DNA of 64,000 nucleotides from Candidatus Zambryskibacteria bacterium RIFCSPLOWO2_01_FULL_35_19 (GTDB taxonomy: Bacteria > Patescibacteriota > Minisyncoccia > Phycocordibacterales > WO2-35-19): positions 35,341 through 99,340 of the forward strand of contig MHWA01000004.1 in assembly GCA_001825335.1 (NCBI GenBank), written 5' to 3'. The position numbers and the translations under genes are program-made. Positions 16,939-64,000 of the stretch are shown piece by piece (the stretch's first letter is position 1; the number at the start of each line of letters is the position of its first letter). The notes under the pieces are model-generated. The model saw nothing but the letters and a program-made list of their open reading frames with translations. It was not told the DNA's origin and searched no databases.

Positions 16939-16992
16939 TAATCAGAGAATACTACTTTTCAGATTCTATTACAATAATTTATGCCATCTGAA

Positions 16993-17295
16993 TCAACAGA
17001 GTTTATTATTTTCAAACATCCAGACGAATTCTTTCAGATTCTTACCCAAAATATAGTATCTAACGCCAGATTTTGTACCCATTCGTATTGGTTTTAGAAT
17101 ATGGCCATAGTAGTTTATGTATTTTATTGTAGTCTTGTAGCTCTTTCTCCAGTAAAAAATTTCTTTTTCGCATATCTGCCTTGCTGAATAGTATTCCGTA
17201 TCTACAGGATCAAACCTGTGCATTGGCTTGTAGGCCTCGCGCGTGCTCCCACGATCCTCGCTGGACTCATTATTTGTGTTTGTAATGGTATTCAT
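16993..17295 (-). CDS. hypothetical protein (100 aa)
   Basis: ORF immediately downstream of the recombinase; no recognisable motif. Confidence 0.3.
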   Translation of the reverse strand: MNTITNTNNESSEDRGSTREAYKPMHRFDPVDTEYYSARQICEKEIFYWRKSYKTTIKYINYYGHILKPIRMGTKSGVRYYILGKNLKEFVWMFENNKLC

Positions 17296-17300
17296 TATCT

Positions 17301-19061: not shown

Positions 19062-19650
19062 GATTTTTTTGCTGACAAATTTTCAGTATCTTTTCTGGAG
19101 TTGCAAACTCAATTTCTTTTGATTTTATTTTTATTAACTGCCTTATGAGATCTTCTTTGTTTAGAGATTCAATCTCTTTGATTAAATCCGCTAGTAAATA
19201 ATCTCGTAAATCTTCAATACTATTCATAGTTTCAGGAAGCCCTTATTTGTTATTTCTAAAATATGCTTTTAAATAAAGGTTTCCTAAATACTATTGTTAT
19301 AGGTGTGTATATATAAGTACATATACTTACACATTTCTTTTGTTAACAACTGATGCGGGCATTGGTGCGCTTTACAGAATCTAAGGCCTTTTTGAGTCGA
19401 AAAGAAAAAGCCCACTATATTTTGAATTTTCTTTGATTACGACGCTTCAGAGAGTCTTTTTCCATCTCAGCAAATACCCCTAACATTAGCAGAATATCCC
19501 TTCCAAAAAGTTTCTCTCGTTCAGCAGTGTCACTGTTTCTATCATTTAACACACGTGGATACATTGCCACGTTTTTGATATTTTTTGATTTCATAAATTT
19601 AGATTTTTTAAGTTTGTAAATTTTCAAAGTTTAATTTCACTGATTTTCTC

Positions 19651-20403
19651 CTATGATTCTGAATTCTTACTCCATTCGTAAGGCCCCAAAGCCAAAAATT
19701 GGGCAACTCGCTCCTCACTGGAGAAAAACCAAGCGACAGTTTGAGTTTCAGCAATTCCCTTCCAGTACTCGTTTTCCCTCACATTTTTGAGAGCACAGAC
19801 AAGCTCCTCTGGCCAATACTCGTTAAATCTTGCTTTGATATTTTCTTTAGCTTCTCTGGTCAATCTTTGTCCAGAACGGATTATGTTTGAATAAAGTGTA
19901 TACATTTTTTCTATTTTCTTTTCTATTGCTTTACTATCTATTGTGCTTGCATTTTGTTCATTACTTAACGCTTGCACTTCGTTCAAGGGGGTGGAGCCAC
20001 TTTTTTCTCCACCCGCCTGAACTTGTTGCAAGACTAGAGTATATTCGCTTGTCCACCCCTTGCGTTTCCTAATCGTGATGAACCCCTTATCTTCTAACTT
20101 ATGAAGTGACGTAACGACTTGTCTGTAGCTGAGACCTGTTCCAGTCCCGATCTTGCCACCGCCATTTGCTATTTGTTCTATGCTCATTGTGTCCGAGTTT
20201 TTCTGGAAGCCCCAGGTTCTGCGTAAGATAAACAAAAGCACTCGTGTTTCAGAGCCATTAAGCAGGTGCATGTATGAATCCAGGAGACGAGGAAACATCC
20301 AGAAATTTTTCTTCATTTCTGGAGGAAAGCCAGGAAATTGTTTGGGGTTGTCTTGCATATTTATTAATCTTCGTCCTTCCCATCCTCTTCTTCTGCGAGC
20401 CAA
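19651..20403 (-). CDS. winged-helix DNA-binding protein, phage replisome-organiser/initiator-like
   Basis: 250 aa; RVLLFILRRTWGF...MSIEQIANGGGKIGTGTGLSYRQVVTSLHKLEDKGFITIRK, which resembles the N-terminal domain of phage replication initiation proteins. Confidence 0.4.
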   Translation of the reverse strand: MARRRRGWEGRRLINMQDNPKQFPGFPPEMKKNFWMFPRLLDSYMHLLNGSETRVLLFILRRTWGFQKNSDTMSIEQIANGGGKIGTGTGLSYRQVVTSLHKLEDKGFITIRKRKGWTSEYTLVLQQVQAGGEKSGSTPLNEVQALSNEQNASTIDSKAIEKKIEKMYTLYSNIIRSGQRLTREAKENIKARFNEYWPEELVCALKNVRENEYWKGIAETQTVAWFFSSEERVAQFLALGPYEWSKNSES

Positions 20404-20693
20404 TCTCCAATTGTCATTATCTCTTCGTAGGAGTATGTGAATTTTAGATCAATCTCTCTGCCCTGAATGCGAAATACAATATTTGGACTACCCATATTTG
20501 TTAGAGAATCGTCCAAAAAAGATGGATAGAACGAAATATCAAGCCTTATGGGTTCAGTCATATGTTTGTCGTTGGTGGTATCCCATAGAATTTTGTTAAC
20601 AGCTACTACTACTTTTTCAGCAATTTCTTTAAACGAACTTTTATTAAATTCTTGTGACATTTTTTTGCCACCTTTCTTATTTGTTGTTGACAT
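20364..20693 (-). CDS. hypothetical protein (109 aa)
   Basis: Acidic C-terminus; overlaps the next gene's start by 40 nt, consistent with an operon. Confidence 0.3.
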   Translation of the reverse strand: MSTTNKKGGKKMSQEFNKSSFKEIAEKVVVAVNKILWDTTNDKHMTEPIRLDISFYPSFLDDSLTNMGSPNIVFRIQGREIDLKFTYSYEEIMTIGDWLAEEEDGKDED

Positions 20694-20763
20694 AATTTTA
20701 AATAATTCTTAAGAAGGAGTGTGGGAGCGGACTGACTATTGACCACCCCCAGTTCCTTTACGA

Positions 20764-21195
20764 TTACACTTTTCTATCTCTTGGGGGAACAGGAATGTTT
20801 TGAACTGATTTGTATGTGTTCTTGGTTTTCTTTTTTATCTGCTTTTTTGTCAAATAGCTTGTGTCATCTCTCATTGCCCAATATTCGTCTGGGTCATTGA
20901 AGTACATACTCGGTGTTCCCGCCTCAAACGCACCACTGGAATATTCCAAAGTGTATTTTGGATCATACGCCTTGCCGAAGCTGATTTGTCTGTTAAGCAC
21001 AAGTGGAAGTTTTTTCTTGGAAGGCAACAGTCTTATCCTCAGGATGATATCCCTGGGTATAATCTTGTCTCCTCCACTGAAAAACCCTCTTTTCTCCAAT
21101 TCTGTCGTAATCAACCATTCGGCATCATCTAACAAGTACCAGAGATATTTTTGGTCTTCTGGAAACTCTTTAATTTTTTTAATTTTGTAATTCAT
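20764..21195 (-). CDS. hypothetical protein (143 aa)
   Basis: ORF with plausible composition; no motif. Confidence 0.3.
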   Translation of the reverse strand: MNYKIKKIKEFPEDQKYLWYLLDDAEWLITTELEKRGFFSGGDKIIPRDIILRIRLLPSKKKLPLVLNRQISFGKAYDPKYTLEYSSGAFEAGTPSMYFNDPDEYWAMRDDTSYLTKKQIKKKTKNTYKSVQNIPVPPRDRKV

Positions 21196-21274
21196 AGATT
21201 TTATGCGGTCGGAACGCGGAGCACTTCTACAAAGTACTCCGCTCCTGCCACCGCAATTTATTTACTAACTCAAA

Positions 21275-21589
21275 CTACTCCAGTGGAATCTGGAACTGCG
21301 CCGTCTTTGTATGCTTGCGATAGTATCTAGAGGCCAACTCCATGATAGGAGTCTTGCCTCTAAGGTCCAGTTTGATCTGAGCTTCTTTGAGCTTCGCTGG
21401 TATTTTGCCGAATGCTTTCACTAGACTTGTGGCTATCTGGTTTGCTCCGTCTTCCAGTATGGCCGGCACTATTCCGTAACCTCTGGGCGGCATTGAGTTT
21501 TTGAATTGATATTTCATAACAATTCTTGTTTCTTGTTGGATTATTTTGTTCGCTTTGGAGAAGTATGCTAAACAAACGAGTAAAAGCAC
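21275..21589 (-). CDS. hypothetical protein (possible frameshift with overlapping ORF 21360..21653)
   Basis: Two overlapping reverse-strand ORFs in different frames; the downstream frame has the more protein-like sequence. Confidence 0.25.
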   Translation of the reverse strand: MLLLVCLAYFSKANKIIQQETRIVMKYQFKNSMPPRGYGIVPAILEDGANQIATSLVKAFGKIPAKLKEAQIKLDLRGKTPIMELASRYYRKHTKTAQFQIPLE

Positions 21590-22092
21590 CCGACAAAGAG
21601 TTGCCGGAACCGACCTCTTGCTTTTTTTGTTTGTTGCTCATTTTGACGAACAAAAAATCCGCTTATAATTTGCGGATGCAAGTGGTCAGCATTACGAGAT
21701 TCTGAAGCTGATGCAAACGCATCCTGTCTGAATCCCGTTGGGGCTGAGTCCTTAGTTGTAAGTTTACACTACCATAACCTCTAATTTTTACTTTATGGAA
21801 CCTGTGGATAACGATAAAATACAACACGAAACTTTTAATCTGCAAGACACCCAGATTGCCCGTTAAAAATAAAGCCATATAAAACCATTACTTATACCCC
21901 AAAATTCAGCAGCCGTGAACGCGCAGCCCGACGAAATGATGCTAGCCACCTACTCCTAGTCAGTGCCCAGAAAGGATGTGGCAGAGCAAAGCAGTGCCCA
22001 TTTTCTTAACTTTTCACTTTGAAAGTTGTAAACGAGTGAGGTTCGCACGGAAGCCATAATAAATGAGATTGATTGTCTCTCGCATCTTTTAT

Positions 22093-22614
22093 CTACTCAA
22101 ATTTATCAACAATTTTGTCCAGTTTGTCTGACGCTTCCAGTATCATATTCATAGACTGGTCATAGAGTTTAGAGTCATGTTTGTCTATTGCTCTTCTGTA
22201 AATCGGCATGGAATCTCTAAATAATTCAAAAGCTTGTAAAACTTCTTGATGTATAAGAATCAAGTCTTCAGGCGGAACAATGGCTTTAACTCTTTCGTAA
22301 GATTTTTCTATGATTAGTGTGTGTTTTGCCAACTCCGTCACATCCTTATTTGTCCAGTATTGTTGATACGATTGTAAAAGATTTCGTGCCTCCATTGAAT
22401 TAGTCACATCTTCATAAACACCAATCACTTGGTTGAAGTAAACGGAGGTGCTGTATTTGTTTGCTACATATTTATTATCAGATGGTAGAGACGAAGAAGG
22501 ATTTGATCCACCAGAAAAAGCTACATAAGCCCACAACATTAGAAGCACAAAAAATAAAATAGTCAAAAATCTTTGTGTCTTCTTTGTTTTCACCTCACCA
22601 TTTGTAGAATCCAT
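22093..22614 (-). CDS. hypothetical membrane-anchored protein (173 aa)
   Basis: N-terminal TM LTILFFVLLMLWAYVAF, then a soluble domain. Confidence 0.35.
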   Translation of the reverse strand: MDSTNGEVKTKKTQRFLTILFFVLLMLWAYVAFSGGSNPSSSLPSDNKYVANKYSTSVYFNQVIGVYEDVTNSMEARNLLQSYQQYWTNKDVTELAKHTLIIEKSYERVKAIVPPEDLILIHQEVLQAFELFRDSMPIYRRAIDKHDSKLYDQSMNMILEASDKLDKIVDKFE

Positions 22615-22968
22615 AAAATTTGAATTAAAAAAAACCTGCTACTAATGCAGGCGGCAAGACTCCGACAAAAAGCCCGCCACCAGGAAGGTCCGAAGACCTC
22701 TATAAGAGTTTCCCCTTATAACGTTGAGAACGCCCTGAATGACGGGTTGTTTGTTCTCAACGATTTTCGACCATGCCAGAGTTTGAAGCTACTGGTTTAG
22801 GTCTTTCGGACTATTTAGTTGTATTTATATAGTAATACTTGCCTCTCGTTAAGTAAACAAGTAATTTGAAAAGGCCTTATTATAAATTTATACAAAAAGG
22901 TATAATGACCTTACAAATCCATAGCCTAAACCGTTTTAGCGGCATGGCAAAAACCAACCACGAAATCC

Positions 22969-23994
22969 TCATTGAGGCCTAATTTGCGGTTGGGCGGTCG
23001 ATGAGGATTTTATATTATTCGCTTTTCCTTTAGTCCATTTTTTCGGCACTCTCCGATTCAGTTTTTGCAAGAGTTTAATCTTCAGATTTCTGGATCGGCA
23101 ATGAGAAAGGATTCCGTTATAAGAAGAAAAATTCTTATCTGTCGCTTTCCTTAGTATTCTCTTTTTGGTTTTGGTTCTCAAAATTCTGTAGCTAGGAAAA
23201 CAAACATAGCCAAGGTAATCAATGCCGCTTGAATAAGTTTTCAAGACTATCTTATCTGGATGGATTCTTAATTTTAAATTTTGCTCAGTGAAGTTTTGAA
23301 TTTTGGAAAGGCACAATTCCAAAAAACTTTTGTCTGTGTGCATAAGGATAAAATCATCAGCATATCTGATATATCCCTTGACTTTCAGTTCATGTTTCAC
23401 AAATTGATCAAGTTTATCCATGTAAATATTGGCAAAAATTTGAGAAGTGAGGTTACCAAGCGGTATGCCGGAACCAAAACTTTCCGTTATATCTTCAAAA
23501 AGTTTGATCAGTCTGCAATCAAAAGTCTCTTTTCTTAATATTTTAAGAAGTATTTCGTGGTCAACGGAATCAAAAAATTTCCTGATATCCAGCTTCAATA
23601 CCCACAATGTCCTGCTGTTATTACGAGAAAGCTTAAGTCCCATTTTATAAAGACGCTTAATGGCCCAGTGAGTGCCTTTGTATTTTCTGGAAGACCAAGA
23701 GTCAAAGATAAACTTCTTATCCCACATCTGCTCTATAACTCTGATTATTGCATGATGCAAAAGCCTGTCCCTGACGCTTGCCTTGTGAATATGCCTCTTT
23801 TTTGGATCATTAATGAAAAAGGAAAAATAACCGCCATGTTTATATACCCCATTTACCAAATCTTCATGCAATTTAAAAATATTGTCTTCAAGGTTAAGCT
23901 CAAATTCGGCGACATCCTTCTTTCTCCTTTTGTCCCTGCGAAACTCGGTCCATGCGTCGAACAAATTTTTTAGTGAAATAATTTTTTCAAACAT
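22969..23994 (-). CDS. DGR reverse transcriptase
   Basis: 341 aa; the N-terminus matches the DGR RT pattern (ELNLEDNIFKLHEDLVNGVYKHGGYFSFFINDPKKRHIHKASVRDRLLHHAI); IPLGNLTSQIFANIYM; catalytic IRYADDFILMH. Confidence 0.85.
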   Translation of the reverse strand: MFEKIISLKNLFDAWTEFRRDKRRKKDVAEFELNLEDNIFKLHEDLVNGVYKHGGYFSFFINDPKKRHIHKASVRDRLLHHAIIRVIEQMWDKKFIFDSWSSRKYKGTHWAIKRLYKMGLKLSRNNSRTLWVLKLDIRKFFDSVDHEILLKILRKETFDCRLIKLFEDITESFGSGIPLGNLTSQIFANIYMDKLDQFVKHELKVKGYIRYADDFILMHTDKSFLELCLSKIQNFTEQNLKLRIHPDKIVLKTYSSGIDYLGYVCFPSYRILRTKTKKRILRKATDKNFSSYNGILSHCRSRNLKIKLLQKLNRRVPKKWTKGKANNIKSSSTAQPQIRPQ

Positions 23995-23995
23995 A

Positions 23996-24376
23996 ATGAA
24001 TACAAAAAATGATATTAAAACCGCCGAACAAACTCCTCTGTTCCAAGCAGTCTATAAGCTGTATCTATCATGGTATGTCAGATGCAGCCAAATTCCAAAG
24101 AAAGATAGATTCACTATAGGCCAAAAGACAGAAAATCTGCTTTTGGAAATTCTAATTTTGGTAGTTACCGCCTACCATACGAACAATCCGGAATATAAAA
24201 GGCAATCTCTATCTAAAGCAAATACTCTGCTTGAATGCGTCAAAGTCACTATCCGGTTGGCCAAAGATGTTAAAGCTTTGGAACAGCGCTGGTATATTGA
24301 TTACCAAACCAGAATCCAGGAAATGGGTAAAATGCTCGGCGGGTGGATCTCTAGTACATGCAAAACGAACGGATAA
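23996..24376 (+). CDS. avd: Avd-like accessory variability determinant (four-helix-bundle family)
   Basis: 127 aa from the internal ATG of ORF 23882..24376. YLSWYVRCSQIPKKDRFTIGQKTENLL...EMGKMLGGWISS parallels phage BPP-1 Avd as I recall it (YLYPIAQSIPRKHGV...EVGRILGSWIAR). It is oriented divergently from the RT; its stop overlaps a hairpin plus T-run. Confidence 0.6.
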   Translation: MNTKNDIKTAEQTPLFQAVYKLYLSWYVRCSQIPKKDRFTIGQKTENLLLEILILVVTAYHTNNPEYKRQSLSKANTLLECVKVTIRLAKDVKALEQRWYIDYQTRIQEMGKMLGGWISSTCKTNG

Positions 24377-24410
24377 ATGTCCGTCCGTTTTTTCTTTACG
24401 AGAGTGACTT

Positions 24411-24528
24411 CGGAGGGAAACAACACCCAAATTGTCGTTGCGTTGCCCTGGGTTATTGTTGTTGACGTTGACGCCGTTGCGGTCAGCGTTGCCGAGATTC
24501 ACAAGCTTGCCGTTAGAGGAAAGGGTTG
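24411..24528 (-). repeat. DGR template repeat (TR)
   Basis: ~118 nt matching both VRs. All ~13-14 mismatches to each VR fall where the TR has T on the plus strand, which is A on the transcribed minus strand. It translates as ...NLGNADRNGVNVNNNNPGQRNDNLGVVSL, rich in AAC codons. A hairpin follows its 3' end at 24362-24391. Confidence 0.8.
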
Positions 24529-24825
24529 TTTTTGCGTCTCTCCATCCAGATCAGAGGCCTTAACCGGGCAGGCGCATCTTATAGGATGTAAGTAGCGCCT
24601 GTTGTGTAAAAATGTGGTGGCTGATTTAATCCGTCACCTAAGTGAATTTACATAAATCACCACTCCAGAGCGACGCAAGCAGTTCTTCTCTCATAATTCA
24701 ATGTTGGCGAGAATCATGACATGCACGATCCTTCATTAGCCATAAACATTATAGCACCTCAAAAAAATTGCGGCGAAGAAACCAAAGATTCAAAGAATAA
24801 ATATCAAAGTATCAAGAGAGAAAAA

Positions 24826-25809
24826 TCAGCGGAGGGAAACAACACCCAAATTGCCGTCGCGATGCCCTGGGTCATCGTCGTTGACGTCGACGCCGCTGCG
24901 GCCAGCGTCGCCGAGATCCACAAGCCTGCCGTCAGAGGAAAGGGTGTTAGACCAGTCATAGTTTGCTTCCAAAATGCCCCTTTCTTTCCTATTTCTAAAC
25001 TGCAAAACCCAGTCATACAATATTTCCGCCGGAATACGCCTATGGTTTTTATTTATCAAAAGTTCCGAAAGTTTCCTTGCCACTTCTTTCCAATTTTTAT
25101 CATAATCTTCGTCAAGCATTTTTTGGAGTCCTTCAAGAAGTTCGTCGGTACATTCTTCTTGTTCTTCCTTTGAAACGGAATCCAAACCCATAAGATAATC
25201 GCGTAACACCTTGGTTTGTTCTATATAATTTTTACTGGTGGAATCGGGCACAAAATTTTTGCCAACCAGTTTCCATTCGGTCCTTAAAGAAGCGTTTTTG
25301 AAAAAATCTTCAGTTTGATACCAGCCTATGTCGTAAAGCAATTTTTCCTGTTCTTCTTCGCTATCTTCCTCTAAAATTGCTTGCATGAGTCCATTCATTC
25401 TCTCCATAGTCATAGGAGATCCTTCTCCATCGCTTTCTACCCGTAGCACAAGCATTTCTCCGTTCCCCTTAGCTTTTTCAAGTATTTCAGGACTATATGG
25501 AATGGCTGGCACTTTTTCTTGAGGGAATTCAAATCTAAAAGTACTCTTTATTTCTTCAACTCCATAAAAACTATCGCTCATGATCTCTTGGGCTTGTTCA
25601 TAAGAAGTTTCAATTCCTTCACTTGTTTTTTTATTACCAACACCAAGTTCTTGTTTAAGTTTTATATATTTTTCTTTTATAGCCTTGAGTTCCTGGACGC
25701 TTAAAGAGTTAAGCTCTCGGCCTTTTTGGATGACAGTTATTTCTTCAACAATTTTAGAGCCGAGCTCGCTCTCTTTTTCGGGATTTGTGGTTTTAGGTGC
25801 ACCTTCCAT
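24826..25809 (-). CDS. DGR target protein 1 (short paralog, C-terminal variable module)
   Basis: 327 aa; the C-terminal ~150 aa are paralogous to target 2; ends ...DLGDAGRSGVDVNDDDPGHRDGNLGVVSLR. Confidence 0.7.
   Translation of the reverse strand: MEGAPKTTNPEKESELGSKIVEEITVIQKGRELNSLSVQELKAIKEKYIKLKQELGVGNKKTSEGIETSYEQAQEIMSDSFYGVEEIKSTFRFEFPQEKVPAIPYSPEILEKAKGNGEMLVLRVESDGEGSPMTMERMNGLMQAILEEDSEEEQEKLLYDIGWYQTEDFFKNASLRTEWKLVGKNFVPDSTSKNYIEQTKVLRDYLMGLDSVSKEEQEECTDELLEGLQKMLDEDYDKNWKEVARKLSELLINKNHRRIPAEILYDWVLQFRNRKERGILEANYDWSNTLSSDGRLVDLGDAGRSGVDVNDDDPGHRDGNLGVVSLR
24829..24946 (-). repeat. DGR variable repeat VR1
   Basis: Begins immediately 5' of the stop codon; differs from the TR only at TR adenines (Asn AAC becomes Asp, Ser or Gly). 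Confidence 0.8.
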
Positions 25810-25905
25810 ATTTTTGCTTATTTAAAGCCAGTATATCATAAAAATTTTCGCGGAAAAACCAAAGGAACAAAGGGAAAAGATCAAAGGTTCAATATGAGAA
25901 AAGAA

Positions 25906-28290
25906 CTAGCGGAGGGAAACAACACCCAAATAGTCGTAGCGTAGCCCTGGGTAATCGTTGTTGACGTCGACGCCGTCGCGGTCAGCGAGGCCGAGATCCA
26001 CAAGCTCGCCGTAAGAGGAAAGGGCTGCTGTCCAATCATAGGTCTTCTCCAAAATTCGCTCATTATTGCCCTTTATGGAGAGCAAGATGTCATAAAGGAC
26101 TTCTGGCGGCAGTCTCCTGTGATTTTTGTTCACGGTAAGCTCAGAGAGTCTTCTAGCCGCCTCCTGCCAGTCTGATTTCATAATTTCGTTAATTTCTTCA
26201 AGAACTTTATCGGAACATTCTTTGGCCTCATCTTCAGTCAGAGATCCCAGTGATATTAAATATTCGCGCAATATTTTTGTTTGCTCTATATAATTTGTGG
26301 ATCCTTCAGCTTTACCGCCATAAGAAGTAGTCACCGACTCAGGAAGAGGAGCTTTGGTTGTAAGCCTCCATTTCAAGCGAGGATGAGTATTTGGAATTGG
26401 CGTGCCATCTTTATTGATTCCGGTGTAAAACGGCTCATCTTTATACCAACAACTACTTTCTAACTTTGCTGCACCAGATTTATCTTGTCCATACAAAACC
26501 TTAATTTTTTCTCCAGTAGCAGGATCGATCAATTCAGGAATCATTTCAAGCATATGAGATATGGTAAGGAACTTACCTTCTGAGTCTTTATCAACTCCGA
26601 GTACAAGCATTTCTCCATTCTCCTTGGCCTTTTCAAGATCATCCGGCGAATATGGCATATCTGGAATATCTTCAAGAGCCACTTTGATACCAAAAGTCTT
26701 TTCAATTTTTTCAGGTCCCATATAGTCTTTGCCCAACATTTCTTTTGCTAATTCCATTTTTTTAAGCAAAGTATCAGGTGAAGTTCTTCTCTCCGGCTTT
26801 GATAGTTTACCACTGGCCTCAACTTCTGCTTTCAGTTTTTCAATATCTTTAATGAGCCCAGCCTTTTCTGGAGATATACCGGCAGTTTCTAAGCTTTTTC
26901 TTTTTGATTCTCCCGGCTTAGGTTTGTATTCCACTAATCTTATAAGCTCCCCGAGCTTTTTTCTGTCAGCGTCACTCTCCAATTTATTGGCGTAATAATA
27001 ACGGAGAGCTTGTTGCATGGTTTCGTTAATATCTCCATTATAAAATCTCAAAATAAAATCTCTGACTCTACGAGGTTCCATACGATCATCGTAAGTGAAA
27101 GGTTGAGGCTGATCTTCAGCAATTTTTCTATTTTTCAAAAGCTCTTTGGCCGCTTTATGAAATTCTTTAAATTTTTCCAAAACTTCAGGCAGTCCTTGAA
27201 TATCTTGGAGTTGCTCTGTTGTTAAACCTTCACCTCTGGCTCTGAGGAACATGTCAGGAGTTATATTTTGCGTTCCAGCTCCTATTCCAAAAAGGGCGTC
27301 TGTTGAAAATGAGAACGTGCCTTCTGGAAGTTCGGTTGGCAGTTTTTTGTAAACCCATCTTCGGAGTTGGGCAGGATCTAGTGGTTCACGACCAAAATAT
27401 CCTTTGCCTGGAGGGTTCATCAGGGCAATAATTTTGGTCTTCTCTTTATTCACAGCTACAGCTTCTGAAGCATCTTCAGACAATACGACATCTCCACCCC
27501 TTTCAAGAGAATCTAAAACTTCATGGAGACGAATGAGAATGTTTGGGGCTGAAGCGTTGAATTCGTCCAATATAATTATTTTTGTCTTGCCTTCTTCTTG
27601 CCTCAAACCGCTTGTTACTTTGCCGTCTGCAAAAATATATTCAGGATCTTCAGGTTTATTTTTGTGAGGATTGGGAATGTATCTCCCCATCAAATCTTCA
27701 ACATCAGTTGCCCCGTTGAGGTTCGCATAATGAATCTCCCAACCAAGTTCAGCTGCCATCTTTTTAACCGTTGTGGTTTTGCCTAGAGATGTTCCACCAT
27801 CAACAAGCAGAGGCTCACCGCTTACAAACGCCACAGCGATATCTCTTTGCAAAGGCAAAGCCACTTCTTTGTCATTTATAAAATCTTGGTATTGCTCTCT
27901 TCTTGGTATAAATTGACCATTACCATTTTTTGCTTTCTCCAAACCAACTCCAAGATAAGAAACGCTGCTTTCAGTTTCTTCAATAGAATTTTCAGTTATG
28001 GGAATAATCTCTACAAATAATTTACCGCTCATGGGATCCTCCGGATTGGTGTCTTCCACAACTCTAACCTTATACGGATATCCAGGCTCCGGTACTGGAG
28101 AAGATTTTGCCAAAATAATAATTTTCCTGCTTGGAGAACTGCTTTTATATTCCTTTTCGCCACTCTTTTTTTGCTGTTCTTCAAATATGACATCATCAAT
28201 AAAATTGCCCCCTTCTTGTGTCCCCACATTTTCTATTTTAGCCTTATTTTTAGGGTCAAAATTGATATTTTCCATTTCAGTGCTTGACAT
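25906..28290 (-). CDS. DGR target protein 2: MoxR/AAA_5-family ATPase fused to a DGR-diversified C-terminal module
   Basis: 794 aa; Walker A GGTSLGKTT; Walker B KIIILDEFNASAPNILIRLHEVLD (the DEFN matches MoxR DEINRA); sensor region IIALMNPPGKG...DPAQLRRW; the C-terminus ...DLGLADRDGVDVNNDYPGLRYDYLGVVSLR carries VR2. Confidence 0.75.
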   Translation of the reverse strand: MSSTEMENINFDPKNKAKIENVGTQEGGNFIDDVIFEEQQKKSGEKEYKSSSPSRKIIILAKSSPVPEPGYPYKVRVVEDTNPEDPMSGKLFVEIIPITENSIEETESSVSYLGVGLEKAKNGNGQFIPRREQYQDFINDKEVALPLQRDIAVAFVSGEPLLVDGGTSLGKTTTVKKMAAELGWEIHYANLNGATDVEDLMGRYIPNPHKNKPEDPEYIFADGKVTSGLRQEEGKTKIIILDEFNASAPNILIRLHEVLDSLERGGDVVLSEDASEAVAVNKEKTKIIALMNPPGKGYFGREPLDPAQLRRWVYKKLPTELPEGTFSFSTDALFGIGAGTQNITPDMFLRARGEGLTTEQLQDIQGLPEVLEKFKEFHKAAKELLKNRKIAEDQPQPFTYDDRMEPRRVRDFILRFYNGDINETMQQALRYYYANKLESDADRKKLGELIRLVEYKPKPGESKRKSLETAGISPEKAGLIKDIEKLKAEVEASGKLSKPERRTSPDTLLKKMELAKEMLGKDYMGPEKIEKTFGIKVALEDIPDMPYSPDDLEKAKENGEMLVLGVDKDSEGKFLTISHMLEMIPELIDPATGEKIKVLYGQDKSGAAKLESSCWYKDEPFYTGINKDGTPIPNTHPRLKWRLTTKAPLPESVTTSYGGKAEGSTNYIEQTKILREYLISLGSLTEDEAKECSDKVLEEINEIMKSDWQEAARRLSELTVNKNHRRLPPEVLYDILLSIKGNNERILEKTYDWTAALSSYGELVDLGLADRDGVDVNNDYPGLRYDYLGVVSLR
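25909..26026 (-). repeat. DGR variable repeat VR2
   Basis: Same structure as VR1; about 14 adenine-specific differences from the TR. Confidence 0.8.
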
Positions 28291-28494
28291 TATAACTCAT
28301 ATTTGCTATAATATACCCAGAATAGTTCTTTAAATTGTCTGGAAGGTTTTGAAAGAAGTACGACGGGACGCTGGCTAGCCATGCCAAACTCCCCCAAACA
28401 AAACGCGCCAGACCTAGCCACGGTCCGGGACGCACCCCAGCCTCTTTAAAAAGAAGGGGCTTTTTTTTATTTAAAAATGAAAATTTTTGAGTAT

Positions 28495-28902
28495 TCATGA
28501 TTGATATGCCGGACCGCAATTGGCTAATATATTCCAGCCTTTGTCTTGAAGTTTATTCAAATCTTCTTTCAAAACAAGAAAAATCACACAGCCATTGGTA
28601 TAGTCTGGAGAAAACGTTTTTGATTCCATCACGTTATTATCAAAAATTTCCACTTGGCCTGTAGGATACTGAATCAGGAAATCATAAAAATCTTTGCTCA
28701 TATTTTCGCCTGCAACAAGATATGTTTTGGCAGAATTAAATAGATCTGAAATATTATCTGATCGTTTGAATCCTTCGCTCTCCATTGCTCCCGAAAAATC
28801 GCTCAATTGATCTCTGTCTTGGGCTATAATTAGCCCCACTTCTTTTTGGCCAAAAGTTGCCTTAAGAAAATCGGTAAATTCTTTGTTTTCAGTTTCTTTC
28901 AT
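28495..28902 (-). CDS. hypothetical protein (135 aa) between the VWA and MoxR genes
   Basis: Plausible composition; no motif. Confidence 0.3.
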   Translation of the reverse strand: MKETENKEFTDFLKATFGQKEVGLIIAQDRDQLSDFSGAMESEGFKRSDNISDLFNSAKTYLVAGENMSKDFYDFLIQYPTGQVEIFDNNVMESKTFSPDYTNGCVIFLVLKEDLNKLQDKGWNILANCGPAYQS

Positions 28903-28916
28903 ACAGCTTATTTATA

Positions 28917-31202
28917 CTAAAAATTCTGATAATTGGCAATCACTTCTTTTATAAGGTCAGCCAACTTCTCAGCCATTTCTTCCACTTTAACATTTGCAAT
29001 GCTATTTGGATAATATCTGCCAACATGATCGGTCCCCCCACCTATACCCAAACCTATCAAACGAATATCGCTTTCTTCAAGCACTTGTTTGATCATTTTC
29101 CCAAGTTCATATTTTGTCCTCGGATGCATTGAGGATTCCTCAGGTGTGCCATCAGACATGACAATCAAAAATTTCTGATCGGCTTTTTGTTTCTCTAATC
29201 TTTTTGAGGCTTGCTCCAATGCCCAGCCGTCATCATTCCATCTGGCCTTCCCTGTATCGCTAGTATCGTTTACCTCTTGAAGCATGCCTCCCATATGCTC
29301 TCTTATAATTTTGGACATCTGCTCTCCAAAATCTTGATACTCATACATGCGATCATTAAATCCAAGTATTTCAAGATTTATAGATAAGCGGTTTAAAACT
29401 TCCGACAAAACAATAACGGCTTTGAAAGTTTCTTCTATTTTATTTCCGTTGGACATAGAACCGGAAAGATCAACCAATATGGAAATAGCGTAATCTTTTT
29501 CTTTTGGAAGTTCTCTTTTTTGCCAAGCTTTGCTCTCCATAGCCGGAACAGATTTGGCTTTCTCTTGAATCCTTCTTTTAATATCAATCCGCTTGCCGGT
29601 AGTGAAGCCGCTTTTCCAGCCTCTGGCTCTACGCTCGACGAATATCTCTCTCAAATCATTTTCAAGTTTGTCTATGAGCGGAAGGACTTCTTTTCTCATT
29701 CGTTCATAAACATTTTCGTCCTTTTTTAATTCTTTAGCTACTCTGTCTTTGTATTTTTTTAATTCTTCCTCATCAACTTCTTGTGTTTCTCTTCCGGTTT
29801 TTGTTTCTTGCTCAACTTCTTGTTTTGGCTTAACTTCGGCATCTCGTTCCGCCTTCTTTTCCGGATTATCAGAAAGTTTGCCTTGCAACTCTTCATTAAG
29901 AGCCTCCTCAAATTCTTTCATGGCTTTTTCAGCCTTATCTTTTATTTCTTTTTGCTCTCCTTCCGGGAGAGACTGGATATACTCTTTTATCTTTTGTTTT
30001 AAATCTTCAGAAAGAGAGTCTAAATCTATAGGTTTGGTTCCCGGGGATTGTTGTCCTTCCGTATCCTGTGGTTCACCTTCTCCAGCTGATTCGGAAGACT
30101 CTTCAGATTTTTCTCCTTTCTCTCCTTCAGCTTGTTGCTTTTCTTTCTCTGCTTTTTCTTTAGCCTCCTGTTGCTCCTTTTTGGCCTGTTCAATGGCTTT
30201 CTTTATGGCCTCCTCTAAAGCTTGCTGCTCTTCCGGAGTTAATTTATCTTTCAGTTCTTGTGGCATTCCTTTTTCTCCTTTTTCTTCGCCTCCGTCTTTT
30301 TCTTTCTGCATATCCTTTAACAATTCTTCCATTTTTTGATCTTCCATATCAGCTTCAACCAATTTTTTAAACTCTGGCCATATTTGATCTCGATTTATTT
30401 GATACGAAAGCTCGGCATATTTTCTGATCAACCCTTCGCTTTTGTCAGCCTCTTGTCTAGAAGGATATCTGAGCCAGGAATCTTGGGCCGATAACAGAGT
30501 CGCTTCAACTGCAGTTTTAACTTCCTCCGGCAAATCTGGAGACAATTCAAAATCTTGCTCTTTAGTTTCTCTAAACCATTGTTTAATATATTCAAATCCG
30601 GCCTGCATAAAGCGGGGCTTATATCCAAGTTTTTGCTCGGCTTTTTCTTTGGCCTTGGCTTCAAAATCCAAATCTTGTTCATAGGCCAAACCCATTTGTT
30701 CTCCAAATTTAGGATAACTTTCAGCCACAAAGTTATTGTCTCTTGGGTCTTCTATAGAATTCATCATGAAAGAAAACCCCGGTTGCTTCCATTCTTCCAA
30801 AGGAATAAAATCAGTCCGGCTGATTCTTCTGTGGCCGCCTTCATGAGAAATGACAAATCTTAAATAATCCATCGGTTTTTCCAAAAGATCTTTAGGATCA
30901 ATTCGTATTATGTTATTTTTAAAATCCCAATACCAACCGCCACCAGATTCATTAAGCTCAATTGGAATACGAAAATCTTTGCCTATGAAATACGCAAGAG
31001 AAGAGAGGGTCTGTTGTTTTTGTTTTATTTCTTCCTGCTGTTCAGGAGTAAACTCCGCAAGAATTTGTTTTTCTCTTTCTGGTTTCAGAGCTTTATATAT
31101 CTGCTCCGGCATTTCCGCAGTTTCGTTTTCAGGTATTTTGCCGTCTAATTTAATGCCCTCCATAAAATTGATTATAACTATATTGTGTCGCAAATTGGAC
31201 AA
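28917..31202 (-). CDS. DUF2201-like protein: N-terminal HExxH metallopeptidase-like domain, long K/E-rich coiled region, C-terminal VWA domain with MIDAS motif
   Basis: 761 aa; VISHEGGHRRISR (HExxH); VWA ISILVDLSGSM (DxSxS) ... LIVMSDGTPEE; this is the classic partner type of MoxR ATPases. Confidence 0.65.
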   Translation of the reverse strand: MSNLRHNIVIINFMEGIKLDGKIPENETAEMPEQIYKALKPEREKQILAEFTPEQQEEIKQKQQTLSSLAYFIGKDFRIPIELNESGGGWYWDFKNNIIRIDPKDLLEKPMDYLRFVISHEGGHRRISRTDFIPLEEWKQPGFSFMMNSIEDPRDNNFVAESYPKFGEQMGLAYEQDLDFEAKAKEKAEQKLGYKPRFMQAGFEYIKQWFRETKEQDFELSPDLPEEVKTAVEATLLSAQDSWLRYPSRQEADKSEGLIRKYAELSYQINRDQIWPEFKKLVEADMEDQKMEELLKDMQKEKDGGEEKGEKGMPQELKDKLTPEEQQALEEAIKKAIEQAKKEQQEAKEKAEKEKQQAEGEKGEKSEESSESAGEGEPQDTEGQQSPGTKPIDLDSLSEDLKQKIKEYIQSLPEGEQKEIKDKAEKAMKEFEEALNEELQGKLSDNPEKKAERDAEVKPKQEVEQETKTGRETQEVDEEELKKYKDRVAKELKKDENVYERMRKEVLPLIDKLENDLREIFVERRARGWKSGFTTGKRIDIKRRIQEKAKSVPAMESKAWQKRELPKEKDYAISILVDLSGSMSNGNKIEETFKAVIVLSEVLNRLSINLEILGFNDRMYEYQDFGEQMSKIIREHMGGMLQEVNDTSDTGKARWNDDGWALEQASKRLEKQKADQKFLIVMSDGTPEESSMHPRTKYELGKMIKQVLEESDIRLIGLGIGGGTDHVGRYYPNSIANVKVEEMAEKLADLIKEVIANYQNF

Positions 31203-46121: not shown

Positions 46122-46198
46122 CCTTTAATGCTAACATTTTTAAAAAAGAGAAGCCCCGCCTCGGCTTAACCGGGCGGGGAGTGAATCGGGTTTTTACT

Positions 46199-60661: not shown

Positions 60662-61615
60662 ATGGCACAAGACTTAGAACAATTAAAAAGGCAATTTTTA
60701 GAATACGTTGAAATAGAAAAGGGGCGGGCTTTAAATACGGTTGAAAATTACAACCATTACCTTTCAGTTTTTCTGAAACAAACCAAAGCTCAAAAACCAT
60801 CTGATATAAACGACACTATGATGCGGGAATTTAGATTGTGGCTCAACAGACAAGTTACCGGAAAAAATGTAAAAACCGGAGACACTATGTCAAAAAAGAC
60901 CCAAAATTATTACTTGATTGCCATAAGAGCTTTTTTAAAATATCTAGCAAGACAAGAAATCAAATCTATGCCATCTGAAAGAATAGAACTGGCCAAAACT
61001 TCAGAACGCTCTCTTGATTTAATTACAAACGCTGAATTACACAGATTACTTGAAGCTCCAAAATCTTTCGACTCTACTCAAGATAAAGATAATCATCTTA
61101 AGTATTTACGCGATAAAGCCATTTTAGAGCTCCTTTTTTCAACAGGACTTCGTGTATCCGAGCTCTGTTCCCTTACTCGTGATATTGACCTTACCACCGA
61201 CGAACTTTCAATAAGAGGAAAAGGAAGCAAGGTGAGAGTAGTCTTTATATCTGATTATGCCAAAAAGATTTTAAAAGAATATTTATCAAAAAGAAAAGAT
61301 ATGGATGATGCCCTTTTTGTTCAACTTTCACAAAACGGCAAAGTAACTAAAGAGAGGAAAGGAAGTCTGGCACTGACAAAAAGATCAGTAGAGAGGATAG
61401 TAAAACAGTGCGCAGTCAAAGCTGGTATTTCCAAAAAAGTCACTCCTCACACTATGCGTCACCTTTTTGCCACCGACCTACTTTCAAATGGCGCTGACTT
61501 GCGCTCTGTCCAAGCCCTCTTGGGCCACGCCAACATCGGCACTACCCAAATCTACACCCATGTCACCGACCGCCACCTCCGCGACATCCATAAAAAATTT
61601 CATAACAGAAAATAA
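60662..61615 (+). CDS. tyrosine recombinase, XerC/XerD family
   Basis: 317 aa; R...HTMRHLFATDLLSNGADLRSVQALLGHANIGTTQIYTHV (the catalytic Y). Confidence 0.8.
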   Translation: MAQDLEQLKRQFLEYVEIEKGRALNTVENYNHYLSVFLKQTKAQKPSDINDTMMREFRLWLNRQVTGKNVKTGDTMSKKTQNYYLIAIRAFLKYLARQEIKSMPSERIELAKTSERSLDLITNAELHRLLEAPKSFDSTQDKDNHLKYLRDKAILELLFSTGLRVSELCSLTRDIDLTTDELSIRGKGSKVRVVFISDYAKKILKEYLSKRKDMDDALFVQLSQNGKVTKERKGSLALTKRSVERIVKQCAVKAGISKKVTPHTMRHLFATDLLSNGADLRSVQALLGHANIGTTQIYTHVTDRHLRDIHKKFHNRK

Positions 61616-61686
61616 CAAAACTACTTTTCCAAGAGCCTTATCCTATTGACCTAACGCAGGAAAAGTATGTTTTGTTATTTTCTGTT
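61604..61686 (+). repeat. hairpin element with conserved loop (family copy 5)
   Basis: 27-bp stem AACAGAAAATAACAAAACTACTTTTCC/GGAAAAGTATGTTTTGTTATTTTCTGTT; loop AAGAGCCTTATCCTATTGACCTAACGCA. It spans the Xer stop and the xth start region. Confidence 0.6.
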
Positions 61687-62526
61687 AAAATGAAATTTAT
61701 GAAAATCACATCTTGGAACATAAATGGCATACGGGCGGTGCATAAAAAAGGACTGTTTTTACCTTTTGTAGATAAATACAAGCCGGATATTATTTGTTTG
61801 CAAGAAACTAAAGCCAAGCAGGATCAAAGTGAGATAGACTTGCCAGAATATGAGGAGTATTGGAACAGTGCAGAAAAAGCTGGTTATAGCGGAGTGACTA
61901 TTTTTTCTAAAATAAAACCACTTAGTGTGCAGACTGGCTTTCCGAAAGAGATAGTTAAAAAATATAAATTAGAACAAGACAGCTATGGCGACCCAAACAA
62001 AGAAGGGAGAGTTTTAACGGCCGAATTTAAAGATTTTTTTGTGGTTAATGTCTATACTCCCAATTCTAAAGGTGATTTAAGTAGGCTGGATTTAAGATTT
62101 AAGAGTTGGGACCCAGCGTTTTTAGAGTATGTTACAGAATTAAGGAGAAAGCCCGCCCAAGGCGGGTCCGCCTTGGGCGGAAAAAATGTAATATTCTGCG
62201 GTGATTTGAATGTGGCCCACACAGAAAATGACTTGGCTAATCCCAAACAAAATGAAGGCGAGCATGGTTTTACAAAAGAAGAACGCAAAGGAATTAACAA
62301 CATTATTGCCGCCGGATTTGTAGATACCTTTCGCCATTTTACTCCAGAAGGAAAAGGTTACTACACTTGGTGGAGTCATTTCGCTAATGCTAGAACCAGA
62401 AATGTTGGCTGGCGCATAGACTATTTTTTTGCCAACAAAGAATTAATATCAAATATAAAAAGTTCAAAAATCATTCCAGATGTATTTGGTTCTGACCACT
62501 GCCCTATTATGTTAGAAACAAAATAA
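61672..62526 (+). CDS. xth: exodeoxyribonuclease III (AP endonuclease)
   Basis: ITSWNINGIRA, LQETK, CGDLNVAH, SDHCP; the start is more likely the ATG at 61690 (MKFMKITSW). It contains an in-frame GC-rich palindrome. Confidence 0.8.
   Translation: MLFSVKMKFMKITSWNINGIRAVHKKGLFLPFVDKYKPDIICLQETKAKQDQSEIDLPEYEEYWNSAEKAGYSGVTIFSKIKPLSVQTGFPKEIVKKYKLEQDSYGDPNKEGRVLTAEFKDFFVVNVYTPNSKGDLSRLDLRFKSWDPAFLEYVTELRRKPAQGGSALGGKNVIFCGDLNVAHTENDLANPKQNEGEHGFTKEERKGINNIIAAGFVDTFRHFTPEGKGYYTWWSHFANARTRNVGWRIDYFFANKELISNIKSSKIIPDVFGSDHCPIMLETK
62151..62180. repeat. GC-rich nested palindrome inserted in frame inside xth
   Basis: GCCCGCCCAAGGCGGGTCCGCCTTGGGCGG encodes KPAQGGSALGG between ELRRK and NVIFCGDLNVAH. 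It shares the CCAAGG/CCTTGG core with the recG element. Confidence 0.5.
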
Positions 62527-62951
62527 ATATTTTTTATATACAACAAAACGCCTAGATGCGGTGGAGGATTTTCGCACGACAAGGCGTTTTTGATTAACCT
62601 TTCATAAATGAAAGTATAAAGAACATTTACTCAGCCCTGATTTTGTTTCTGATTTCTTTAGATATATTAATATCAGACTCAAAATCAGAGCTGAGGCAAA
62701 AGATAAATTTCGTCAAGAAGCGCATTCACAAAAAACCTTATGATATCTCATTTTAAAAATTATATGAGTGAAGATATATATAAATTGTTTTTTGAGCTTA
62801 ACCAAACTTTCTTTCAACTTCATGGCCATGAAGTTATAAAGAACTAATGCTGACTACTATAGATATACTCGTCTTTTAAAAAATGTCAGTTATGTCTGAT
62901 ATAAAGTTTATGTCTTTTATAAATAATGTAAAGGACATTATGTGGATAACT

Positions 62952-64000
62952 TTACTCTACATAATGTTTGCCTCTTATTTTTTTTATTTCCATTTGGTCA
63001 TCTTCTTCTTTTTTTACCTTACCTTTATCCCCCATCATTCTCAATTCTTTATCGGACATTTTTGACAACTCTAATATCTTTTTATTTAAATATTCTTCAG
63101 TATTCAAAGTTGGATCCTCCAATACTTCTTCTAGTAAAGCGTTTAGCATTTGACCTATTTTTGGTCCGGGAGGAATTTTTAGAATTTCCATAATCTTCTG
63201 ACCATCAATTTTAAGCATTTTCACTGATATAGGGTCTCTCATCACCTCTTCTATCATTGATTTATATTTTCTTAATCTATAAGGATTTTCTTTAGGTCTG
63301 CCAGTGCCAATCCTATCACAACCTCTCATATTGATAAGATCCCATATATTTTCCTTACCAACATTAGCTACCAATCTTCTGACAGCTGAATGAGTTATTT
63401 TTTCAGTATCAGAGAAAAACATATGCCAACGAACCAAATTAACAACCTTATCTATTGTTTCACGTGAAAATCTTAAATCCTCCATTATTTTCTTAGTTAC
63501 ACGTGAACCCACTACTTCGTGACCATAAAAAGTCCATATTTTAGATTTATTGTCCCACCTTCTAGCTCTAGGTTTAGCCACATCATGCAAAAGAGCCGAA
63601 AGTCTCACATGTAACGGATATTGTTTATCAGCTGAATGTTGAGCTGTTTTTAATAGATGAGTCCAAACATCATAAGAGTGCGCCTTATTTTGCTCTACAC
63701 CAATACTTTCTTCCAATTCTGGTATTATATAAGTCAATAAACCAAGTTTCTTAAGTAACAAAAGTCCATCCATAGGAGAAGGGGACATTATTATCTTAAC
63801 AAATTCATCTCTAATTCTTTCTTTAGAAACCTCTTTTAAAATATGATTATTTTCAAATATTGATTTTTCAGTTTCTTGGTCTAGAGGAAAACCTAGTTCC
63901 ACGTGGAACCTGACCGCCCTTAAGATTCTCAAACCATCTTCAAAAAATCTCTCTTTAGCTTCACCGACTGTTTTTATGATTCCTTTAGATAAATCAGCCA
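62952..64000 (-). CDS. cca: CCA-adding tRNA nucleotidyltransferase (partial; N-terminus beyond window end)
   Basis: HD domain LLHDVAKP, HEVVGS; the upstream in-frame sequence to 64000 reads ...GEAKERFFEDGLRILRAVRF (the head-domain signature). The listed ORF start is internal. Confidence 0.7.
   Translation of the reverse strand, partial: ADLSKGIIKTVGEAKERFFEDGLRILRAVRFHVELGFPLDQETEKSIFENNHILKEVSKERIRDEFVKIIMSPSPMDGLLLLKKLGLLTYIIPELEESIGVEQNKAHSYDVWTHLLKTAQHSADKQYPLHVRLSALLHDVAKPRARRWDNKSKIWTFYGHEVVGSRVTKKIMEDLRFSRETIDKVVNLVRWHMFFSDTEKITHSAVRRLVANVGKENIWDLINMRGCDRIGTGRPKENPYRLRKYKSMIEEVMRDPISVKMLKIDGQKIMEILKIPPGPKIGQMLNALLEEVLEDPTLNTEEYLNKKILELSKMSDKELRMMGDKGKVKKEEDDQMEIKKIRGKHYVE

Follow-up and report, generated by a model that had tools for sequence, protein, structure and literature searches.

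A 30-nucleotide double-hairpin element in xth of a Zambryskibacteria genome, probably one copy of a mobile family found across uncultured bacterial lineages

A GC-rich palindrome of 30 nt is inserted in frame in xth, the gene for exodeoxyribonuclease III, in a 64,000-nt stretch of Candidatus Zambryskibacteria bacterium RIFCSPLOWO2_01_FULL_35_19 (contig MHWA01000004.1, positions 35,341 to 99,340; the whole stretch is called here the window, and coordinates refer to it). We consider this palindrome to be probably one copy of a widespread family of ultrashort, nonautonomous selfish or mobile insertion elements, built of two tandem 15-nt hairpins. A first-pass annotation, made from the sequence alone, had described it as one of a small family of palindromes that tolerate insertion into coding sequence; the family and the tolerance were confirmed, but the family is not small, as it was found at no fewer than 120 loci in many phyla.

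The xth palindrome is an exact in-frame insertion

The host gene (61699 to 62526, plus strand) matched Pfam PF03372 Exo_endo_phos (3.6e-26), TIGR00633 (290 bits, with a cutoff of 99) and ExoA in PDB (1.1e-72). Its product is identical to OHA86133.1/OHB02378.1 (Candidatus Zambryskibacteria; Parcubacteria, candidate phyla radiation), and this insert-bearing protein is present on 18 + 3 contigs from the independent projects GW2011 and RIFCSP. The sequence at 62151 to 62180 (GCCCGCCCAAGGCGGGTCCGCCTTGGGCGG) is exactly as first annotated, and it lies in frame within the open reading frame (ORF), but comparison with orthologs moves the limits of the inserted segment one base to the right. Against an 85%-identical ortholog (P0005), the difference at the DNA level is exactly 30 nt, with no duplicated bases: the filled gene reads AAG[CCC GCC CAA GGC GGG TCC GCC TTG GGC GGA]AAA AAT, and the empty one CAG|AAA AAT. 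This places the element at 62152 to 62181 (CCCGCCCAAGGCGGGTCCGCCTTGGGCGGA, no strand assigned) and makes the preceding lysine a host residue, so that the extra peptide consists of the 10 residues PAQGGSALGG and not of the 11 residues KPAQGGSALGG proposed before. The predicted read-through peptide includes RRKPAQGGSALGGKNV, with host residues RRK before the insert and KNV after it.

The same gap, clean and of exactly 10 amino acids, was found against the solved homologs 5cfe, 8igi and 5j8n. The window protein, ELRRK[PAQGGSALGG]KNVIFCGDLNVAH, aligns with Bacillus subtilis ExoA, where ELDQK is followed by a 10-residue gap and KPVILCGDLNVAH. A short form, L-K-K-x-KNVIFCGD, is present in about 89 of the 120 closest Xth homologs (approximately three quarters), all of them Patescibacteria-like and with 69 to 100% identity. 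The segment is therefore not conserved in distant homologs, and the original suggestion that it is an insertion holds. In an AlphaFold2 model of Xth (mean predicted local distance difference test [pLDDT] of 83.6), residues 152 to 161 are located in a loop that connects a helix (130 to 149) with a strand (163 to 169), with pLDDT of <50 at residues 157 to 159; in this model the insert is a predicted surface loop directly ahead of the catalytic GDLNVAH strand.

The GC content of the palindrome is 83%, compared to 36.6% for the window, while that of the xth ORF is 37.7% and falls to 36.1% once the insert is removed. It is a perfect palindrome with 13-bp arms (CCGCCCAAGGCGG/CCGCCTTGGGCGG) around a GT center, at 62153 to 62180, and the longest GC-rich hairpin of the whole window; in 20 shuffled windows, arms of 12 or more never made a perfect inverted repeat. 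The single-stranded DNA of the palindrome has a folding energy of −17.1 kcal/mol (z = −5.9). The alternative fold consists of two hairpins, each with a perfect 6-bp stem and a 3-nt loop. Unit 1 (CCCGCC-CAA-GGCGGG, 62152 to 62166, −6.4 kcal/mol as DNA) is a "C...G" variant with a purine-type loop, and unit 2 (TCCGCC-TTG-GGCGGA, 62167 to 62181, −5.9 kcal/mol), with a pyrimidine-type loop, is the canonical unit type of the family; neither has an assigned strand. The window holds five matches to the motif CCGCCNNNGGCGG when up to one mismatch is allowed, versus 0.13 expected and with as many in none of 100 shuffles, and four of the five are the halves of the xth element and of a second element in recG. 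An Rfam scan of 61000 to 64000 gave nothing over the xth element at E ≤ 1, and the matches in this interval were only chance microRNA-like ones on a neighboring long AT-rich inverted repeat (GAAAATAACAAAACTACTTTTCC...GGAAAAGTATGTTTTGTTATTTTC, 61594 to 61699), which lies between a xerD-like gene and xth.

A sister copy in recG

The recG element (4567 to 4596, no strand assigned, TCCGCCAGAGGCGGATCCGCCTCTGGCGGA) is read as SARGGSASGG and, together with its host TTT/AAA flanks (4564 to 4599), makes a perfect palindrome of 36 nt that folds with −21.1 kcal/mol (z = −8.1). Its host gene (2770 to 5058, plus strand) has the Pfam domains RecG_wedge, DEAD, Helicase_C and RecG_dom3_C and matches PDB 1gm5 (2.8e-118). 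The insert is again an exact 10-amino-acid gap with respect to the RecG proteins of Thermotoga maritima and Escherichia coli. It is missing from 119 of 120 homologs and present only in this genome, the empty site being a conserved F|K; at the DNA level, the empty site of the 82%-identical P0121 is TTC|AGA and the filled one TTT[30]AAA.

The two window copies were expected to share a template, and they do, in the same reading frame (CC GCC NNN GGC GGR TCC GCC NNN GGC GGA). What they share is the stem, CCGCC/GGCGG, and not the CCAAGG/CCTTGG core that had been put forward, as the NNN triplets that form the loops are variable (CAA/TTG in xth and AGA/TCT in recG).

Two tandem hairpins are the conserved structure of the family

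In the family as a whole, the element consists of 30 nt with two tandem 15-nt units, each a 6-bp stem of the type T/C-CCGCC...GGCGG-A/G around a 3-nt loop. As a unit is followed by its reverse complement, the element looks alike on both strands. On either strand, the loop of the 5′ unit is usually purine rich and ends in A (AGA, GGA, AAA, GAA, CGA, CAA), while that of the 3′ unit starts with T (TTT, TTC, TCT, TCC, TTG). Complementarity between the two loops was at chance level (20 of 127 copies versus 16.1 ± 3.5). The GT-centered variant seen in xth accounts for 32 of 127 copies elsewhere, and there the base before CCGCC is always C. We found 129 dimers and some monomers but no array of three or more units.

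To let one unit vary freely, metagenomes were scanned for a single unit plus the A flank (TCCGCCNNNGGCGGAAAA), leaving the partner unit unconstrained, which gave 120 loci or more and 133 anchors. The 15 nt upstream of the anchor form a perfect hairpin with a 6-bp stem and a 3-nt loop in 52 of the 133, of which 28 are canonical and 24 have different but fully compensated stems (TCAGCC/GGCTGA, CCAGCC/GGCTGG, TCTGCC/GGCAGA, TGCGCC/GGCGCA, TTCGCC/GGCGAA, TCTGTC/GACAGA, TCCCCC/GGGGGA and TCCACC/GGTGGA). The remaining partners retain four to five pairs in 11 anchors and resemble background in 70. When pairs were left out one at a time, the stem of the free unit showed 35 compensatory (double) changes versus 8 one-sided ones. 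In an alignment of 60 elements, whose rows had been preselected for at least four of six pairs in the free helix, the tandem-hairpin model paired 98.9% of the cells and gave 40 double-change cells versus 7.8 in shuffles, with none of 500 shuffles as high. The long "nested" hairpin, which the first-pass annotation had taken as the structure, was discarded as a conserved feature, since it paired 84.5% of the cells versus 84.2% in shuffles and 149 of 500 shuffles were as good. In heterodimers of different unit types, the two short hairpins are kept and the long one is broken. On this alignment evidence, the two short tandem hairpins are the structure conserved in the family, and nesting comes with the perfect symmetry of the two copies in the window.

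In some double hairpins all four arms differ jointly from the usual stem, as in TCAGCC-GAA-GGCTGA + CCAGCC-TTT-GGCTGG (L111:2306-2335) and CCACCC-TAC-GGGTGG + CCACCC-GTA-GGGTGG (L086:755-784). These joint changes suggest subfamilies or a concerted correction between arms. The invariant stem arms contain no stop codon in any of the three frames, and stops are possible only through the variable loop triplets. An intergenic GC-rich hairpin of the window (GCCCCGCCTCGGCTTAACCGGGCGGGG, 46153 to 46179) is of another type, with an indel in the stem and a 5-nt loop, and falls outside the family.

Distribution across lineages and insertion sites

We scanned one genome per GTDB species for CCGCCNNNGGCGGRTCCGCCNNNGGCGG and recovered at least 120 loci. 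Among the loci listed, 53 belong to Patescibacteria (many classes), 18 to Omnitrophota and 13 to the Planctomycetes-Verrucomicrobia-Chlamydiae (PVC) group, represented by Kiritimatiellae, Verrucomicrobia, Lentisphaerae and Planctomycetes; by record title, the others are 11 "uncultured Gammaproteobacteria" third-party annotation bins, 11 unclassified and 14 others. All carriers listed are metagenome-assembled genomes (MAGs), except for one single-amplified genome (SAG). They come from several assemblers, include long-read contigs of 0.7 to 1.6 Mb, and their loci range from 27% to 70% GC. Only four matches were found among 2.9 million viral contigs of IMG/VR, and there was no match to the element pattern in PLSDB plasmids or in GenBank cultured phages; a phage or plasmid vector is thus not supported.

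The consensus of the flanks is TTT[30-mer]AAA, also in GC-rich hosts, with T at −2 and A at +2 each in 81% of 124 copies. Since the recG flanks are host codons (F and K) present in empty orthologs, they are not part of the element but point to a preferred target, or to microhomology. Neither xth (AAG[30]AAA versus CAG|AAA) nor recG (TTT[30]AAA versus TTC|AGA) shows a target-site duplication.

Coding context and frame bias

Approximately 60% of the copies (78 of 127) are located inside stop-free frames of at least 150 codons, and about 40% lie outside long ORFs. The length of 30 nt is intrinsic to the element, because the noncoding copies share it. The three frames are used very unequally by the coding copies: 64 read (F)(S/P)AxGG(S/P)AxGG(K), 9 RQRRIRLWRK and 5 PPEADPPLAE (chi-square, P = 7e-19), so that the favored frame represents 82% of them. 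In an independent metagenome sample the split was 22:5:2. The hosts are unrelated housekeeping proteins, including DnaG, DnaE, UvrA, UvrB, UvrC, Mfd, RecG, HsdR, PurA, FolD, MraY, DnaJ, transketolase and GH57, together with PheT and an S41 peptidase (two copies each), tRNA synthetases of the Ile/Leu/Val, Cys and Asp/Lys types, and others. In the FolD of a Saccharibacteria carrier the insert again corresponds to an exact 10-residue gap against a solved structure, while the alignments of UvrB and PurA with PDB entries gave no indel size.

From the frame bias, in-frame inserts seem to be translated together with the host protein. Bypass of the coding copies by the ribosome, as in the mitochondrial byps, is an unnecessary assumption, since both the multiple-of-three length and the uneven use of frames argue for read-through. 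In ca. 960 kb of carrier DNA, no other codons ever encode the peptide pattern [SPTA]AxGG[SPTA]AxGG, and in this genome the codons of the insert are of minor use (TCC, 8%; CCC, 13%; GGC, 16%; GCC, 19%). As the peptide arises only from the palindromic codons and these are minor, the unit of inheritance is the DNA (or RNA) and not the peptide.

The hosts look enriched in genome maintenance functions (RecG, UvrA/B/C, Mfd, HsdR, DnaG, DnaE, Xth and an alkylation repair enzyme; loci L013, L026, L045, L049, L074, L088 and others). Of 31 hosts, 5 are superfamily 2 (SF2) repair helicases, which do not figure in the top Pfam families of 115 neighboring ORFs; this comparison was made post hoc and without control for gene length, which confounds it.

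History of the insertion site in xth

The insert is identical over its 30 nt between genes whose products share 78% amino acid identity. Its codons are the same in 10 of 10 positions in that pair and in 8 of 8 with a gene at 69% identity, compared to 47 to 52% of same-residue codons elsewhere in the genes (P = 0.0014 and 0.0022). Decayed copies were found in P0116, P0008 and P0006, and other homologs have apparent single-unit relics at the same site (SASGG and STLGG). The left loop CAA, rare otherwise, is common to all xth copies, and the distribution of the insert is patchy on a rough neighbor-joining gene tree.

A second GC-rich repeat with cross-phylum distribution (CCTTCGRCTTCGCTCAGGRCARG, peptides RSGQ/STSSGQ) fills the same xth loop in other Patescibacteria. 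It was detected in the xth homologs P0007, P0010, P0012, P0022, P0084 and P0096, at L124:1430-1470 and L008:4660-4700, and in the folD of L043; the latter is the Saccharibacteria FolD that bears the double hairpin, where the second repeat is a 5-residue insert. In a MAG of Kiritimatiellae it lies 95 nt from a double hairpin, within an intergenic module of ca. 185 nt that is itself repeated. That two repeat families occupy the same site in xth indicates that this loop is a permissive site or a hot spot.

A probable mobile element and its alternatives

The explanation that we favor is that of a selfish element. It enters DNA as an exact 30-nt block, without target-site duplication and mostly at a T-rich/A-rich junction (TTT|AAA), and would multiply and move as selfish DNA, probably with horizontal spread between lineages. 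The frame bias might then be one of survivorship, in which loops of essential proteins put up with the insert only when it reads as flexible Gly/Ser/Ala. The machinery that mobilizes or maintains the element may recognize the hairpins, probably as single strands or when extruded, by analogy with repetitive extragenic palindromes (REPs) and their REP-associated tyrosine transposases (RAYTs) and with IS200/IS605, systems whose substrates are folded single strands and which leave no duplication. A bolder version is conceivable, although we regard it as doubtful: the double hairpins would form a new class of minimal mobile elements, smaller than any so far, and a dedicated hairpin-recognizing enzyme would insert and excise them without a seam at sites of the TTT|AAA type. 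They would move between phyla of ultrasmall and uncultured bacteria and preferentially persist in, or home to, specific loops of essential genes, DNA repair genes included, so that conserved proteins would be remodeled continually. Any specific class of mobilizing enzyme that one might name at present would be an improbable choice.

Several observations weigh against mobility. Transposition itself was not observed. With 30 nt, the element is smaller than any known to transpose by a demonstrated mechanism. The carrier loci (ca. 1.7 Mb) yielded neither a partner transposase nor any other partner gene, and the copy density in the window is only 2 per 64 kb. By cluster lookup there was no near-identical Xth or RecG variant without the insert, nor a filled/empty polymorphism within one population. 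The CAA loop shared by the xth copies would need either one old insertion followed by several precise losses or repeated site-specific insertion, and the conserved synonymous codons of the xth insert could point to a functional constraint instead of selfishness.

The search for a partner returned some candidates that were rejected. A phmmer search of the carrier loci with an approximate IS200 TnpA query gave a single match, in an IS200-type element (L091:3360-3975, TnpA ORF at ca. 3476 to 3900) directly downstream from a CysRS gene with a double-hairpin insert; its end hairpins (CCACTGG...CCAGTGG and CCACCAGC...GCTGGTGG) are unrelated to the double hairpin. The candidates for an autonomous parent, in which an ORF would lie between single units, proved to be clusters of repeats or a copy of the element interrupted by an IS110, and the loci examined contained no parent element. 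The IS110-family insertion sequence in question (L207:1134-2700; ORF at 1235 to 2365 with Pfam Transposase_20 and DEDD_Tnp_IS110) interrupts a canonical element, TTTTCCGCCACAG[1.57 kb]GCGGATCCGCCTTCGGCGGA, in whose left unit it separates the loop from the 3′ arm, and a cluster of three mixed-type hairpin units lies 150 nt upstream from the split element. By analogy, an IS110 within the element may be regarded as a REP-like trait.

One alternative is that the double hairpin is a selected nucleic acid signal, such as the site of a dimeric DNA- or RNA-binding protein, a DNA uptake-type signal, or an mRNA structure that tunes translation or stability. The synonymous sites of the xth insert, conserved far above the gene average, the strong covariation of the stems and the restriction of the loops on both strands (RRA at the left and TYY at the right) are what such a signal would show, and the apparent excess of genome maintenance hosts (the SF2 helicases among the 31 hosts, besides xth and recG in the window) recalls the DNA uptake sequences of Neisseria, which are biased toward genome maintenance genes. 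However, that excess was noticed post hoc and gene length confounds it, and the density of the window is far from the approximately 1 per kb of uptake sequences, which are moreover lineage specific, while the same double hairpin appears in unrelated phyla. Its presence is patchy even among close orthologs, and it has no fixed position relative to genes, occurring in all frames and in intergenic DNA. A terminator would not be expected to have a T run upstream and an A run downstream on both strands, nor to lie inside ORFs as the window copies do. We judge a signal unlikely on these grounds. The palindromes could also be nonmobile and arise repeatedly in place, by hairpin-templated strand switching or slippage at junctions of T and A runs. 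Template switching could generate an element whose four arms all derive from a single 6-mer or its complement, and the homopolymer-like TTT|AAA flanks, the lack of target-site duplication and the arms that sometimes change all together (L111 and L086) would fit. Still, a local error gives no reason for the same CCGCC/GGCGG stem across phyla and over the whole GC range of the carriers, the empty sites (CAG|AAA and TTC|AGA) hold no template for a GC-rich 30-mer, and the heterodimers of two unit types argue for preexisting modules that recombine, all of which makes an origin in place quite unlikely.

Adaptation at the protein level, by selection of a flexible Gly/Ser/Ala linker in Xth and RecG with incidental palindromy of the DNA, is largely refuted, and we give it very little credit. 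The peptide (P/S)AxGGSAxGG does resemble engineered flexible linkers, the insert lies in a loop, and the frame bias is strong. Nevertheless, only the palindromic codons are used and never the GGT/GGA, GCT and TCT preferred by the genome; identical DNA is found in noncoding regions and in the other two frames; the covariation of the stems tracks base pairing and not codons; and most orthologs function without the insert. In addition, the TCAGCC...GGCTGA type puts a TGA stop in the usual frame, and in the sample examined it was seen only in short ORFs or in other frames. Finally, all the carriers found are MAGs or a SAG, and amplification chimeras can make palindromes, so an artifact of assembly, amplification or sequencing has to be considered. 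It is practically excluded by the recovery of the same Xth protein from independent projects, by the different assemblers, the long-read contigs and the SAG, and by three features that would not be expected of an artifact, namely, the exact length of 30 nt, the 64:9:5 frame bias and the decay by point mutation in orthologs.

Comparison with known repeats

The mobile double hairpin that we propose would be akin to the intragenic palindromic repeat elements, its unusual traits being the minimal size, the seamless insertion and the cross-phylum spread. Rickettsia palindromic elements (RPEs) are found in frame in unrelated housekeeping genes of a bacterium with a reduced genome and are translated as extra peptides where folding allows (PMC10969869). 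The double hairpin shares with them the in-frame insertion into unrelated protein-coding genes. However, RPEs measure approximately 100 to 150 bp and comprise about ten families restricted to Rickettsia, compared to the 30 nt, two 15-nt hairpins and many phyla of the double hairpin, so that length, build and spread set the two apart.

REPs and the REPINs that they form are short GC-rich hairpins arranged as inverted doublets and are targets of the IS110 family (PMC12288879, PMC3116915), some members of which target REPs in Pseudomonas (PMC12288879); REPs carry a GTAG or CGTC tag (PMC3733652). The double hairpin resembles REPs, which are imperfect palindromes of 20 to 40 bp, as a short GC-rich palindrome in many copies (at least 120 loci in genomes and as many or more in metagenomes), with compensatory changes in the stems and clustering with other repeat modules. 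In contrast, REPs are extragenic and tagged, with a spacer in REPINs, whereas the double hairpin is mostly intragenic, has TTT/AAA flanks and no tag, and its units abut. No RAYT turned up in the ca. 1.7 Mb of carrier loci searched with the approximate IS200 TnpA query.

The GC clusters of yeast mitochondria, among them the in-frame clusters of var1 and the byps of Magnusiomyces, are GC-rich palindromes in AT-rich genomes, both coding and intergenic, with polymorphism of the in-frame insertions, fast-evolving loops and merging or shuffling of modules (PMC8811140). The contrast in GC content between the xth element and the window and the in-frame coding insertions are similar, yet the carriers of the double hairpin extend to high GC values. 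GC clusters are organellar, their terminal AG/TAG repeats are interpreted as duplications of the target, and ribosomes skip byps, whereas the double hairpin has no duplication and is probably read through. [quoted passage not shown] The double hairpin is, like both, nonautonomous, structured and multicopy, but unlike MITEs it lacks the target duplication, its whole length being a palindrome, and the ends of IS200/IS605 need guide and cleavage sequences that are too long for 30 nt. PARCELs (palindromic amphipathic repeat coding elements) consist of palindromic DNA that codes on both strands, lie within ORFs and have spread horizontally among distant microbes (PMC2996958). They differ from the double hairpin in not being 30-nt inserts in housekeeping enzymes. 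Their tandem intragenic units are reportedly much longer and encode amphipathic repeats of surface proteins.

Thus, being mostly intragenic and without the GTAG/CGTC tag, the double hairpin is not a REP; its 30 nt separate it from RPEs; and the lack of target duplication, from MITEs and GC clusters. Literature searches that used the sequence, the peptide and the topic, with few subscription journals covered, brought up no description of the element, so that an earlier one may exist.

If mobile, no element that behaves as a transposable unit would be shorter than this one, and it would show how selfish DNA can live inside the essential genes of tiny, gene-dense genomes, with a length that is a multiple of three, stop-free arms and one frame that gives a flexible loop. 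It would also provide a handle on a seamless, duplication-free and hairpin-dependent chemistry of DNA insertion, and it might mark horizontal contact among Patescibacteria, Omnitrophota, PVC and other uncultured lineages. For annotation, loops of the "GGSASGG" type in these proteins should be taken as repeat derived, and the element accounts for the varying length of Xth, RecG, FolD and other proteins at otherwise conserved alignment sites.

Other features of the window

The window contains a diversity-generating retroelement at 22969 to 26055, with a reverse transcriptase ORF (22969 to 23994, minus strand) and a template repeat at ca. 24397 to 24556. Its two variable repeats form the C-terminal ends of the ORFs at 24826 to 25809 (minus strand) and 25906 to 28290 (minus strand, AAA_5), and all the differences between template and variable copies fall on template adenines. 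The GC-rich segments at 24883 to 24916 and 25968 to 25995 are these variable repeats. The reverse transcriptase was considered as a partner of the palindromes and rejected, as it is part of the retroelement and has no visible link to them. The retroelement is included in a probable integrated element (ca. 15400 to 31200) that also encodes a Schlafen/AlbA_2 protein (15433 to 16938), a large serine recombinase (17301 to 19061), a Phage_rep_O-like protein (19651 to 20403) and a VWA/CobT_C protein (28917 to 31202).

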